Part shown: positions 2,771 through 59,933 of the stretch, one piece after another | How positions within the stretch are numbered: position 1 is the first letter of the stretch | How the letters are laid out: the number at the start of each line of letters is the position of its first letter | Assembly: GCF_054482525.1 (NCBI RefSeq) | Contig: NZ_CM137006.1 | Strand: one strand, 5' to 3' | Length of the DNA stretch: 64,000 nucleotides | The notes under the pieces: generated by a model | What the model was told of the DNA's origin: nothing | Database searches by the model: none | What the model saw: only the letters and a program-made list of their open reading frames with translations | Position numbers and translations under genes: made by a program

Positions 2771-5700
2771 ATGATTCCACAGATTTCCCAGGCACCCGGC
2801 GTCGTTCAACTGGTGCTTAATTTTTTGCAAGAGCTGGAGCAACAGGGGTTTACCGGCGATACGGCGACAAGTTATGCCGATCGTCTGACAATGTCGACCG
2901 ACAACAGTATTTACCAACTTCTCCCCGATGCGGTGGTATTTCCGCGTTCAACCGCAGATGTGGCGCTGATCGCCCGTCTTGCCGCGCAGGAACGCTATTC
3001 ATCGCTGATCTTTACCCCCCGCGGCGGCGGCACCGGCACTAACGGTCAGGCGCTCAACCAGGGGATTATTGTTGATATGTCCCGCCATATGAACCGCATC
3101 ATCGAAATTAACCCTGAAGAGGGCTGGGTGCGCGTTGAGGCCGGGGTGATAAAAGACCAACTCAATCAGTACCTGAAACCGTTCGGCTACTTTTTTGCGC
3201 CGGAGCTTTCGACCAGCAACCGGGCAACGCTCGGCGGGATGATCAATACCGATGCGTCCGGTCAGGGATCGCTGGTCTATGGCAAAACGTCAGATCACGT
3301 ACTTGGCCTACGTGCGGTATTGTTGGGGGGCGATATTCTCGATACGCAACCTTTACCCGTCGAGCTGGCGGAAACGCTGGGTAAATCCAATACCACAATC
3401 GGGCGAATTTATAACACGGTTTATCAACGTTGCCGTCAGCAACGCCAGTTAATCATCGACAACTTCCCCAAACTTAACCGCTTTCTTACCGGTTACGATC
3501 TGCGTCATGTCTTTAACGATGAGATGACCGAGTTCGACCTGACGCGCATTCTGACGGGTTCAGAAGGGACGCTGGCCTTTATTACCGAAGCGCGGCTGGA
3601 TATTACGCCCTTGCCTAAAGTGCGCCGTCTGGTGAACGTCAAATATGACTCTTTTGACTCCGCGCTGCGTAACGCGCCGTTTATGGTTGAGGCGCGGGCG
3701 CTTTCGGTAGAGACGGTGGACTCAAAAGTGCTGAATTTGGCGCGGGAAGATATTGTCTGGCATTCCGTCAGCGAGTTGATTACCGATGTGCCTGACAAAG
3801 AAATGCTCGGGCTGAACATTGTGGAATTTGCTGGTGATGATGAGACGCTGATTGATGAGCGGGTAAATGCACTCTGTGCGCGGTTGGATGAACTGATTGC
3901 CAGCCAACAGGCAGGTGTGATTGGCTGGCAGGTGTGCCGCGAACTGGCGGGTGTTGAACGTATCTATGCGATGCGCAAAAAAGCTGTTGGTCTGCTTGGC
4001 AATGCCAAAGGTGCCGCTAAGCCAATTCCGTTTGCTGAGGATACCTGCGTACCGCCGGAACATCTGGCAGATTATATTGCTGAATTTCGCGCGCTGCTCG
4101 ACAGCCACGGCTTAAGCTACGGTATGTTCGGTCACGTCGACGCAGGTGTCTTGCACGTCCGTCCGGCACTGGATATGTGCGATCCGCAACAAGAGATTTT
4201 GATGAAGCAAATCTCTGATGATGTAGTGGCGCTTACCGCGAAATACGGTGGTTTGTTGTGGGGCGAACACGGCAAAGGTTTTCGCGCCGAATACAGCCCG
4301 GCGTTTTTTGGTGAGGAACTTTTTGCAGAACTGCGTAAAGTGAAAGCGGCATTTGACCCGCATAACCGACTCAACCCTGGGAAGATTTGCCCGCCAGAAG
4401 GTCTCGATGCGCCGATGATGAAAGTGGACGCGGTGAAGCGCGGTACATTCGATCGACAGATCCCCATTGCGGTACGCCAGCAGTGGCGTGGTGCAATGGA
4501 GTGTAACGGCAACGGTTTATGCTTCAACTTTGATGCCCGCAGTCCGATGTGCCCGTCGATGAAGATTACCCAGAACCGGATTCATTCACCGAAAGGGCGC
4601 GCAACGCTGGTGCGTGAATGGCTGCGTTTGTTGGCAGATCGCGGCGTTGACCCACTCAAACTGGAACAAGAGCTGCCTGAATCAGGCGTCAGTTTGCGGA
4701 CGTTAATTGCCCGCACGCGCAATAGCTGGCATGCGAATAAAGGCGAATATGACTTCTCCCACGAAGTCAAAGAGGCGATGTCTGGTTGCCTGGCCTGTAA
4801 AGCGTGTTCGACACAGTGCCCAATCAAAATTGACGTGCCTGAGTTTCGTTCTCGCTTTCTGCAACTCTATCACACCCGTTATTTGCGCCCGCTGCGCGAC
4901 CACCTCGTCGCCACGGTCGAGAGCTACGCACCGCTGATGGCACGCGCGCCGAAAACCTTTAACTTCTTCATTAACCAGCCGCTGGTGCGCAAACTCTCGG
5001 AAAAACATATCGGCATGGTTGATTTGCCGCTGCTGTCGGTCCCCTCGCTACAACAACAAATGGTGGGGCATCGCTCGGCAAACATGACGCTGGAACAGCT
5101 TGAAGCTCTCAGTGCAGAGCAGAAAGCGCGCACGGTGCTGGTGGTGCAGGACCCCTTTACCAGCTATTACGATGCGCAAGTGGTGGCGGATTTTGTCCGT
5201 CTGGTCGAAAAATTAGGTTTCCAGCCGGTGTTACTGCCATTTTCGCCAAATGGCAAAGCCCAGCATATCAAAGGCTTTCTTAATCGTTTTGCGAAGACGG
5301 CGAAAAAGACGGCGGATTTCCTCAACCGTGTGGCGAAGCTGGGGATGCCAATGGTGGGCGTCGATCCGGCGCTGGTACTTTGTTATCGCGATGAATATAA
5401 ACTGGCGCTGGGCGAGGAACGTGGCGAGTTTAACGTCTTACTGGCGAATGAATGGCTGGCAAGCGCACTTGACTCACAGCCAGTGGCTACAGTCAGCGGT
5501 GAATCATGGTATTTCTTTGGTCACTGTACCGAAGTTACCGCTTTGCCGGGCGCGCCAGCACAATGGGCCGCGATATTTGCCCGTTTTGGCGCGAAACTGG
5601 AAAATGTCAGCGTGGGTTGCTGCGGCATGGCAGGGACTTACGGACATGAAGCGAAAAACCATAAAAATTCGCTCGGGATCTATGAGTTATCCTGGCATCA

Positions 5701-57184: not shown

Positions 57185-58687
57185 TTACGCTACAGCAGCT
57201 TTCGCCGCTTTGTCTGCAGCGTCATCCTGCGTCATGCGGTGCAGTTTCGGCGCGGTCAGCAGCATCAGTACTGCAATAACGGCAGTAGCGACACCAATCT
57301 GCAAGAATACGCGACCATAGACTTCCAGTGACATCAGCGGATCGGTAACGTTATCCGGCACAGCCATCATACCCGCAACATAACCACCAATCAGGTTTGC
57401 ACCGGCAGTGGTCAGGAACCAGCTACCCATAATGAAGCCCATCAGACGCTGCGGAACGAGTTGTGCGACCATTGCCAGACCCAGACCAGAGATCATCAGT
57501 TCCCCGATACTCTGCAGGCCATAGCTCGCGACCAGCCAGCTTACAGACACGATACCAGCGTCAGACGCGAATTTCGCACCCAGCGGCAGAATCAGGAACG
57601 CACCAGAACACATCACCATGCCGATTGCAAACTTGGTTGGCATCGGCAGGGTATCGCCCATCTTGTTATAGATAGCGGCCAGAATCGGACTACCGATGAT
57701 GATCCAGAACGGGTTCAGTGCCTGATACTGCTCAGGTTCTACGGCCAGGCCCAGAATGGTGTGTTCAACGTTACGAATCGCAAAGAAGTTCAGTGACGTT
57801 GGCATCTGGCTGTACAGCACGAAGAAGATAATGGCTTCGAGCATCAGGATGAAGGCAACGATCATTTTACGACGCGCAGCACCTTTCATCGCGAAGGCTT
57901 CTTTACCGAAGATAACCACAATACCGAAGGCAACAACGCCCAGCGCCATACGCGCAACTTCCTGATTGTGCAGCAGCCAGGTGGCGATAGCGATCAGTGC
58001 CACAACACCAATAATGGTCAGCAGCAGGTTACGGTAGTTGATAGGCTCGAAGTCTGGTTTTGAACCGTACTGTTTAACCCAGCGTTGGCAGAAGGCGAAG
58101 TTAACGATAGTGATCAGCAGGCCTACAACGCTCAACGCAAACGCAACACTCCAGCCGTATTTCGCGGCCAGCCACGGGGTGGCGATCATAGAGAAGAAAG
58201 AGCCGATGTTGACGGACATGTAGTACATGGTGAATGCACCGTCCAGACGCGGGTCGTTTTTCTCATAGCATGTAGAAAGCAGAGAAGACGGGTTAGCTTT
58301 AAACAGGCCGTTACCGACCGCAATAGCTGCCATACCCATATAAACGATACCGGCGTCGTGACCAGACCAGGCAACCAGAGCATAACCAATCGCCAGCACA
58401 ATAGCGCCAAGCATAATTACGCGTTTAGTACCCAGTACCTTGTCACCTAACCAGCCGCCGATAGCGACCAGACCATAAACCAGGGCACTAAAGGAAGAGA
58501 AAAGGGTGATTGAATCCGCTTCAGACATACCCAGTTGTTTAACCAGGTAAACAGCCATAATTCCTTGTAGGCCGTAATAACCAAAACGTTCCCATAACTC
58601 AATCGAGAAGATGAGATAGAACGCCTTCGGTTGTTTGAAAGCGTTCAAACTGACGCTTTCAGTTGGTTTTTGGTTTGCAGTGGACAC
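57185..58687 (-). CDS. dtpA: Proton-dependent di/tripeptide permease DtpA (TppB/YdgR; POT family), 500 aa
   Basis: 500-aa POT-family membrane ORF recognised as DtpA. Confidence 0.93.
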
Positions 58688-59270
58688 TTTTACCTCTTTT
58701 TTTACATCCCATATTAACGGGGGTGCTTTCTCGCGTTATGCCTAAAAAACATACGCGCAATTGTTATAGTGGGAGGGGAAACGGCAGGTAATGTTCACTA
58801 TCTTGCACTTTCAGACAAGTCCTTTGTAATAATCTGTTACATATAACTGAGGCGGGGAATTCAACCATTCCGGGAAATGTTATCCAGCGTTAAATTTTTC
58901 AAAAAACGTAACGGCAGATTTTTTCACTACCCTGAGAGGGGGATGATGGCTTAACGGCGATATGTTCTGCTATTTAGCGTTTTTCCTAGTGAGATAGTCC
59001 AGTTTCTGAAAAATAGCCAGTGTAATGTTTTGTAGGTCAATATTTGTTGCGTGTGTAAATTTAAATGATTTTAACCTAATTCTTGCAATGTTTTTACATT
59101 GCCACAGCATCGTGATCTTGATCACGAATGAATAGAAAATTTCGCTATTAAAAAAACAATTAACCTGCATTTTTGGTTATCCGCAAACGGATTACCTGAT
59201 GATAACGCTAAGCAATGGCATCATTGACGTTAAAAAGATGTTTTAAAAGAGGATAAAGAAAGGTTATGAA

Positions 59271-59298
59271 TGGGGTAATCGGTGTTACCCCTTTTCTT
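59271..59298 (+). terminator. Hairpin GGGGTAA-tcggtg-TTACCCC followed by TTTTCTTC, reading as a plus-strand intrinsic terminator abutting the nth stop
   Basis: Read directly; the U-tract is convincing only on the plus strand, although no plus-strand ORF of 60 aa or more lies upstream of it. Confidence 0.45.
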
Positions 59299-59933
59299 CA
59301 GATGTCAACTTTCTCTTTGTATTCACAAAGATCTTCAATAATACAAGAGCCACAGCGGGGCTTGCGGGCAATACAGGTATAACGCCCGTGTAGGATCAAC
59401 CAATGGTGGCAGTCGACTTTAAACTCTGCCGGAACCACTTTCAGTAGCTTTTCTTCTACCTGTTCGACGTTTTTCCCCGGCGCAAATTGAGTACGATTAC
59501 AAACGCGGAAAATGTGCGTGTCGACAGCAATAGTCGGCCAGCCGAATGCAGTGTTTAATACGACGTTGGCTGTTTTACGACCTACACCAGGCAGGGCTTC
59601 AAGCGCAGCACGATCTTCCGGAACCTCGCCATTATGCTGTTCCAGTAAGATACGGCAGGTTTTGATGATATTTTCTGCTTTGCTGTTATAAAGCCCAATG
59701 GTTTTGATATAGGTTTTCACCCCTTCGACGCCCAGTTCAAGCATCGCTGCAGGTGTATTAGCCACCGGGTAGAGTTTCGCCGTCGCCTTATTAACACTGA
59801 CATCGGTCGCCTGAGCGGAAAGCAGTACGGCAATCAGCAATTCAAAAGGCGAACTGAAATTAAGCTCGGTGGTGGGATGAGGATTGTTCTCACGCAGGCG
59901 AGTGAGGATCTCCAGGCGTTTTGCTTTGTTCAT
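59298..59933 (-). CDS. nth: Endonuclease III (DNA glycosylase / AP lyase, 4Fe-4S), 211 aa
   Basis: HhH motif and C-terminal Cx6Cx2Cx5C cluster; last gene of the rsx-nth operon. Confidence 0.95.
   Translation of the reverse strand: MNKAKRLEILTRLRENNPHPTTELNFSSPFELLIAVLLSAQATDVSVNKATAKLYPVANTPAAMLELGVEGVKTYIKTIGLYNSKAENIIKTCRILLEQHNGEVPEDRAALEALPGVGRKTANVVLNTAFGWPTIAVDTHIFRVCNRTQFAPGKNVEQVEEKLLKVVPAEFKVDCHHWLILHGRYTCIARKPRCGSCIIEDLCEYKEKVDI

Follow-up and report, generated by a model that had tools for sequence, protein, structure and literature searches.

The hairpin that lies directly downstream of nth is probably the ordinary 3'-end stem-loop of the rsxABCDGE-nth mRNA. It occupies positions 59272-59291 of the window, by which we mean the whole 64,000-nucleotide stretch of DNA analyzed here (RefSeq assembly GCF_054482525.1, contig NZ_CM137006.1). 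The 3' end of this message would be formed by Rho-assisted termination and subsequent trimming, and the T-run that accompanies the hairpin on the plus strand would be incidental. The hairpin itself is real and conserved across species; in E. coli its terminator-like look on the plus strand is genuine as well, though young.

An 801-bp query around the hairpin is 100% identical to E. coli strain PCN033 and is single-copy in 5,423 of 5,426 complete E. coli genomes; a repeat or mobile element is ruled out as the identity of the region by this single-copy occurrence. The window runs opposite to K-12, and K-12 coordinates (NC_000913.3) are obtained as 1771456 minus the window coordinate. On the minus strand of the window, the ORF list and the RefSeq annotation give the order rsxG, rsxE, nth, a 610-bp gap, dtpA and gstA, of which the following features concern us:

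59298..59933, minus strand: nth (endonuclease III) coding sequence, the last gene of the rsxABCDGE-nth operon (ORF and RefSeq annotation)
59300-59298, minus strand: nth stop codon TGA
59297..58688, minus strand: nth-dtpA gap, 610 bp
58687..57185, minus strand: dtpA, peptide transporter gene

The initial annotation had described the gap as about 610 bp long and AT-rich, which agrees with the measured length of 610 bp and a GC content of 0.28-0.44, compared with approximately 0.5 in the flanking genes. RefSeq contains no annotated feature within the gap in either K-12 or PCN033. In PCN033, one locus tag number is skipped between nth (RS08825) and dtpA (RS08835), and in Klebsiella MGH78578 the gene KPN_01971 sits between the nth and dtpA orthologues. 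The skipped tag and KPN_01971 together suggest that earlier annotation of the nth-dtpA gap had included a hypothetical ORF.

Folding of the region downstream of nth, together with pattern scanning and alignment, yielded the following elements:

59272..59291, minus strand: 3'-end stem-loop of the nth transcript (fold, pattern scan and cross-species equivalents)
59292..59299, plus strand: T-run TTTTCTTC, which overlaps the complement of the nth stop codon by its last two bases
59203..59232, minus strand: second predicted hairpin downstream of nth (fold of 59300-59170 and alignment)
59175..59196, minus strand: third predicted hairpin, with an AUCCG/CGGAU core (fold and alignment; E. coli only)

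The first hairpin begins 6 nt past the nth TGA and is of moderate stability (dG about -9 to -11 kcal/mol). Read on the minus strand, it consists of GGGGUAA/CACCGA/UUACCCC, with a 7-bp stem and a 6-nt loop; read on the plus strand, it is GGGGTAAT/cggt/GTTACCCC, with eight pairs and a 4-nt loop. The two strands were compared by the d'Aubenton-Carafa discriminant, in which a weighted T score is joined to the per-nucleotide energy of the stem-loop. The plus strand, where the 8-bp stem is followed by the T-run (the tail is also given as UUUUCUUC), reaches d=+16.7 with a T-score of 4.67 and scores as an intrinsic terminator. The nth strand, where the tail after the stem is AUUCAUAA with three U in eight positions and thus lacks a proper U-tract, obtains d=-27.6 with a T-score of 2.52 and fails as one. 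Both observations bear out the initial annotation, which had noticed a hairpin followed by a T-run on the plus strand and a poor U-tract on the strand of nth. On the nth strand, the T-run corresponds to the A-rich spacer AGAAAAG together with part of the stop codon, and this upstream A-run can pair with a U-rich run downstream of the stem.

Within the window alone, the signal is weak: terminator-like sites occur at 3 per kb in the pattern scan, where shuffled sequences give 1.0 +/- 1.0, and local folding z-scores are about -2. The longer minus-strand RNA from 59300 to 59170 folds with z=-3.5 and beats 200 of 200 shuffles, compared with z=-2.2 for the plus strand. Moreover, the arms of the second hairpin (59203-59232) differ among E. 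coli, E. albertii (GATGCCGC..GCGGCATC) and locus L003 of our comparison set, yet they remain complementary, the changes being compensatory.

The evidence that carries the main finding comes from the comparison of nth 3' ends. A total of 80 nth loci were fetched across Enterobacterales, and 45 of them (window included) have dtpA after nth on the same strand. In these 45 species, which range from Escherichia to Serratia, the length of the gap is nearly constant (520-720 bp, mostly 570-620 bp). When a tight hairpin is defined as one with dG <= -8 kcal/mol that starts no more than 15 nt from the nth stop, 34 of the 45 species have such a hairpin at this position and 11 do not, compared with 0-3 species when the search is moved to seven control offsets deeper in the gap and 1-8 when those sequences are shuffled. 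The hairpin is therefore non-random across species. Between genera, the hairpins share no sequence relationship (E. coli GGGGTAA.., Cedecea GCCCGG.., Serratia GGGTGCGG.. and Mixta GAGCCGGT..), and the closing pair shows a compensatory change from G-C to U-A between E. coli (GGGG..CCCC) and E. albertii (UGGG..CCCA). Therefore, what has been conserved is a structure anchored to the end of nth rather than a sequence.

The weak U-tract on the nth strand is general and not a property of E. coli alone, with d_sense > 0 in only 9 of 39 hairpins. On the opposite strand, d_anti > 0 was found in only three of the 39 hairpin-bearing species, two of which are Escherichia, and across species the T-score has a median of 2.77 on the strand of nth, as against 1.69 on the other strand. 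The spacer between the stop codon and the stem builds up stepwise, from CGCAAAT in E. albertii through CGAAAAG in L003 to AGAAAAG in E. coli. It seems that the opposite-strand T-run is a recent, essentially Escherichia-only detail added to an old, nth-linked hairpin. The 130 nt adjoining the hairpin (59297-59170) have only background identity across genera (0.24-0.48). Conservation among the 45 species, to which the initial annotation had looked for a decision, thus holds for the hairpin structure but neither for the adjacent 130 nt beyond the genus nor, essentially, for the plus-strand T-run outside Escherichia.

In Kosakonia and a few other genera (L010, positions 3643-4101; also L013, L023, L027 and L050), an opposite-strand ORF for a 152-aa membrane protein lies between nth and dtpA. 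Only 6 nt separate the end of this inserted ORF from the nth stop, and nth and dtpA are about 1.1-1.2 kb apart in these loci.

Downstream of the hairpin, the composition of the nth strand is distinctive, and one tract is defined from it:

59229..59271, minus strand: 43-nt G-free tract with many C and U, a candidate Rho-loading (rut-like) region (composition)

Over the 50 nt past the hairpin, the nth strand contains more C than G in 43 of the 45 species. The mean skew peaks at +0.38 between +30 and +60 nt past the stop codon (C 0.32 versus G 0.14), and the excess persists at 60-90 nt (C 0.27 versus G 0.15). Upstream of the dtpA leader, the C-over-G excess is strongest at 30-90 nt past the stop, and only the leader bin at +510 nt is comparable (+0.32); a mild excess extends across the whole gap, and the rut-like signal is a quantitative peak and not a unique feature.

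Such an arrangement resembles the Rho-dependent 3' ends of E. coli that lie directly past stable stem-loops lacking U-rich tails, where C is enriched over G and rut sites are found just downstream, where the stem-loops shield the RNA from 3' exonucleases, and where the A-rich tract upstream of the stem is absent (Dar & Sorek 2018, NAR; PMC6061677). The nth stem-loop likewise comes right after the gene, has no adjacent sense U-tract and is followed by more C than G. Unlike the Rho-type ends, the E. coli nth hairpin is preceded by the A-rich AGAAAAG (six A in 8 nt), whereas most other species have 0-2 A in the 8 nt before the stem, matching the Rho-type feature. The upstream A-run of E. coli does not fit the Rho reading and is found more typically at intrinsic terminators, which are often bidirectional. 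In the Term-seq and Rho-region tables of Adams 2021, neither nth nor dtpA appears, and these coordinates are missing for both strands, which may result from low expression or from the coverage of weakly expressed genes.

Taking structure and composition together, the course of events at the end of the operon can be proposed as follows. Because no U-tract adjoins the stem, the hairpin is at best a weak intrinsic terminator for nth, and RNA polymerase would mostly run past it. Rho would then load on the G-free C/U-rich tract (59271-59229) and terminate transcription short of the dtpA control region, whose start lies near 59167. Next, 3' exonucleases would trim the RNA back to the hairpin, and the hairpin would protect or stabilise the nth message. 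The plus-strand T-run would simply be the complement of the A-rich stretch of 7 nt that separates the stem from the nth stop; it probably arose within Escherichia and would not be needed to explain the hairpin, and at most it may confer a secondary ability to stop stray antisense transcription. We infer the involvement of Rho, the exonuclease trimming and the incidental nature of the T-run from the sequence.

The likeness to a canonical intrinsic terminator is partial. As in such terminators, a GC-rich stem-loop stands a few nt past a stop codon, and on the plus strand a stem and a T-run come together (d=+16.7). The gene-bearing strand differs in having no U-tract, and the strand with the complete signature differs in having no known transcription unit. 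In 2019, Ju, Li & Liu reportedly described, in Nat Microbiol, bidirectional intrinsic terminators located between convergent genes. The nth hairpin shares with these a symmetric stem, an A-run on one side and a U-rich run on the other, and the capacity of the two runs to pair; it differs from them in that nth and dtpA point in the same direction and do not converge, and in that the sense U-rich run lies about 10 nt off the stem.

It is conceivable, if rather unlikely, that the hairpin works as a two-way terminator or insulator, which ends nth and has also been kept in E. coli as a plus-strand terminator that spares nth antisense transcription. The plus-strand discriminant (d=+16.7), the 8-bp stem and the UUUUCUUC tail all suit such a role, as does the fact that termination 7-9 nt past the stem would hit the nth stop codon. 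Spurious initiation is common in AT-rich DNA such as the gap (GC 0.28-0.44); moreover, the pairing of the nth-strand A-run with the downstream U-rich run recalls bidirectional terminators. Yet the T-run is limited to Escherichia, where it appeared gradually, and is absent in 36 of 39 other hairpins, so that any role for it would be recent, and co-directional nth and dtpA offer no convergent unit to serve. Nor was a plus-strand promoter predicted above chance: a sigma-70 scan of 58500-59500 returned no sites, and in a PWM promoter scan the best plus-strand score was 6.4 against a mean shuffle maximum of 8.1, with neither strand above shuffles. In addition, the SMRT-Cappable-seq operon table for K-12 1712000-1712799 has a forward dtpA start as its sole TSS and no reverse-strand TSS. 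An ordinary 3'-end stem-loop of the rsxABCDGE-nth mRNA remains our preferred explanation.

The rest of the gap is accounted for by dtpA. Among the 45 species, column identity leaves the background level at 59167, and between there and dtpA it reaches 0.6-0.9 in discrete blocks that are set apart by variable spacers. Conserved regulatory DNA of dtpA, including a 96-nt leader, makes up approximately 480 bp of the gap, and this is the reason for its length. The elements recognized in this part are the following:

59090..59167, minus strand: distal conserved module comprising a T-run, an Lrp-like near-palindrome and a CRP site (60-76% column identity, 45 species)
59167-59150, minus strand: CAGGTTAATTGTTTTTTT in the distal module
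59148-59132, minus strand: Lrp-like near-palindrome ATAGCGAAATTTTCTAT, conserved and adjoining the CRP site
59110..59127, strand not assigned: CRP site TCGTGATCAAGATCACGA, a perfect 18-bp palindrome centred at 59118.5, conserved in most Enterobacteriaceae
58956..59037, minus strand: second conserved block (column identity)
58972-58956, minus strand: near-invariant TAGCAGAACATATCGCC at the end of the second block
58875..58894, minus strand: putative OmpR-like tandem box TTTAACGCTGGATAACATTT, about 90% conserved
58822..58841, minus strand: putative OmpR-like tandem box TGTAACAGATTATTACAAAG, near-invariant and directly upstream of the -35 element
58783..58818, minus strand: dtpA core promoter, with -35 TTGTCT (58818-58813), a 17-bp spacer and -10 AACATT (58795-58790), the hexamers being placed from sequence
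58688..58783, minus strand: dtpA 5' UTR of 96 nt, with C/A-rich CCCACUAUAACAAU, two hairpins and the Shine-Dalgarno sequence AGAGG

The Lrp-like near-palindrome (59132-59148), which in Citrobacter reads ATAGAAATTTCTAT, matches 13 of 15 positions of the Lrp SELEX consensus, and Lrp binding there is a prediction. The conserved T-run (59156-59150) was also considered as the tail of a U-tract-type terminator, a reading that was rejected because no consistent hairpin precedes the run across species. About 335 bp separate the CRP site from the dtpA TSS downstream of it, and a 2026 Footprint-seq preprint reports a novel CRP site, ttCGTGAtcaagaTCACGatg, at K-12 1712342 with a Kd of approximately 2.1 nM and assigns it to dtpA.

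The dtpA TSS itself is given by the SMRT-Cappable-seq supplement at K-12 1712673 (forward, operon b1634), which corresponds to window position 58783, and dtpA is listed there as monocistronic. A TSS near 58963 with TAAATA as its -10 element was dropped in view of this start. That nth transcription should be stopped upstream of dtpA fits both the presence of a promoter belonging to dtpA and its monocistronic listing. The -10 element AACATT is very poor; such a poor core promoter is consistent with dependence on activators and with the lack of consensus promoter matches. OmpR control of dtpA (tppB) is established in the literature, and the two tandem boxes were tentatively assigned to OmpR by their resemblance to the ompF and ompC boxes. 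Furthermore, tppB figures among the listed GcvB targets, with verification in Salmonella, and the GcvB site may lie on the C/A-rich stretch of the dtpA leader. RNAalifold analysis of the leader recovered three pairs only, and the middle hairpin aligns poorly. A second plus-strand terminator-like site (58635-58662, with an 11-pair stem and the tail TTGGTTTTTG) was observed in antisense orientation within the first 50 nt of the dtpA coding sequence; its stem can also form in the dtpA mRNA, roughly at codons 9-18.

We also checked whether the plus strand of the gap may carry a gene of its own. The longest plus-strand ORF in the gap has 42 aa, in line with the initial annotation, which had found none of 60 aa or more. 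Short plus-strand ORFs are located as follows:

58769-58846, plus strand: ORF of 25 aa
58877-58954, plus strand: ORF of 25 aa
59025-59135, plus strand: ORF of 36 aa

None of the small ORFs of the gap, on either strand, is preserved even within Escherichia: the 36-aa ORF has a stop codon in E. albertii, the 25-aa ORF at 58877 has one in L003, and the minus-strand gap ORFs of 66 and 34 aa are likewise not preserved. In the parts of the Kim 2012 supplements that were covered, no number corresponds to the estimated U00096.2 coordinates of the gap, and these genes appear in an orthologue table only. In its permissive E-value mode, Rfam returned chance-level matches only. The SMRT-Cappable-seq dataset is said to be biased to long RNAs, and the negatives from transcript-end tables are not decisive with regard to a plus-strand RNA. 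As far as the sequence goes, nothing found would require a plus-strand gene.

One feature that could be given another meaning is the CRP site. It is bound in vitro (Kd ~2 nM) and, at 335 bp from the dtpA TSS, is too far for classical activation of dtpA. Its centre (59118.5) would lie at about -40 relative to a start set by the -10-like TATTAA (59146-59151, plus strand), and a plus-strand terminator-like site follows 140 nt downstream. One could therefore imagine an unannotated plus-strand sRNA of about 140 nt whose class-II-like, CRP-driven start would lie near 59158 and which the hairpin and T-run would terminate at approximately 59298, and the corresponding 142-nt plus-strand RNA does fold with z=-2.2. 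We regard such an RNA as highly improbable. TATTAA does not end in the T that matters most in a -10 element, and conservation in other genera extends to the CRP site but not to this hexamer; the body of the RNA (59170-59297) is not conserved beyond Escherichia. Its U-tail amounts to four consecutive U followed by C, and four consecutive U is short for an Hfq-type sRNA. The minus strand folds more significantly than the plus strand, no promoter scores above shuffles, and the RNA has no Rfam match, no annotation and no 3' end in the Adams Term-seq tables. Compared with intergenic and 3'UTR-derived Hfq-dependent sRNAs, the locus is similar in being intergenic and in having a terminal hairpin with a U-run on the plus strand, whereas it differs from them in having no promoter, conservation or Rfam family and in the shortness of its U-run. 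If such an RNA were true, it would be a young, Escherichia-specific sRNA ending exactly at the nth stop codon.

A plus-strand mRNA for a protein of fewer than 60 aa, terminated at the hairpin, would find its material in the short ORFs of 25, 36 and 25 aa, but it has almost no chance of being correct, since the 36-aa ORF and the 25-aa ORF at 58877 are interrupted in E. albertii and L003, respectively, the 25-aa ORF at 58769 falls where the dtpA promoter and the OmpR-like box already account for the invariance of the DNA, and RefSeq K-12, with its curated small proteins included, annotates nothing there.

The two alternatives offered by the initial annotation have thus fared differently. A weak or bidirectional terminator for nth gains support from a hairpin that is tied to the nth stop, is kept as a structure and is followed by a C-rich, G-poor tract. 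A short unannotated plus-strand transcript, whether an sRNA or a small-protein mRNA, gains none, as neither promoter nor Rfam match, conserved ORF, conservation, listed TSS or listed 3' end speaks for it, and the search for short plus-strand ORFs that it had proposed yielded none conserved within Escherichia.

With the hairpin read as the 3'-end stem-loop of the rsxABCDGE-nth mRNA, the relevance of the hairpin itself reaches little beyond annotation: a 3'-end structure and a likely zone of Rho-assisted termination can be assigned to the rsx-nth operon. The long nth-dtpA gap, for its part, is shown not to be empty. This gap (nth-ydgR) is widely used as a "neutral" landing pad for large chromosomal insertions and for genome-integrated reporter libraries. 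Its conserved regulatory content means that the nth-ydgR landing pad is not neutral DNA, and insertions made there may part dtpA from its conserved distal elements or come to adjoin a terminator-like hairpin.
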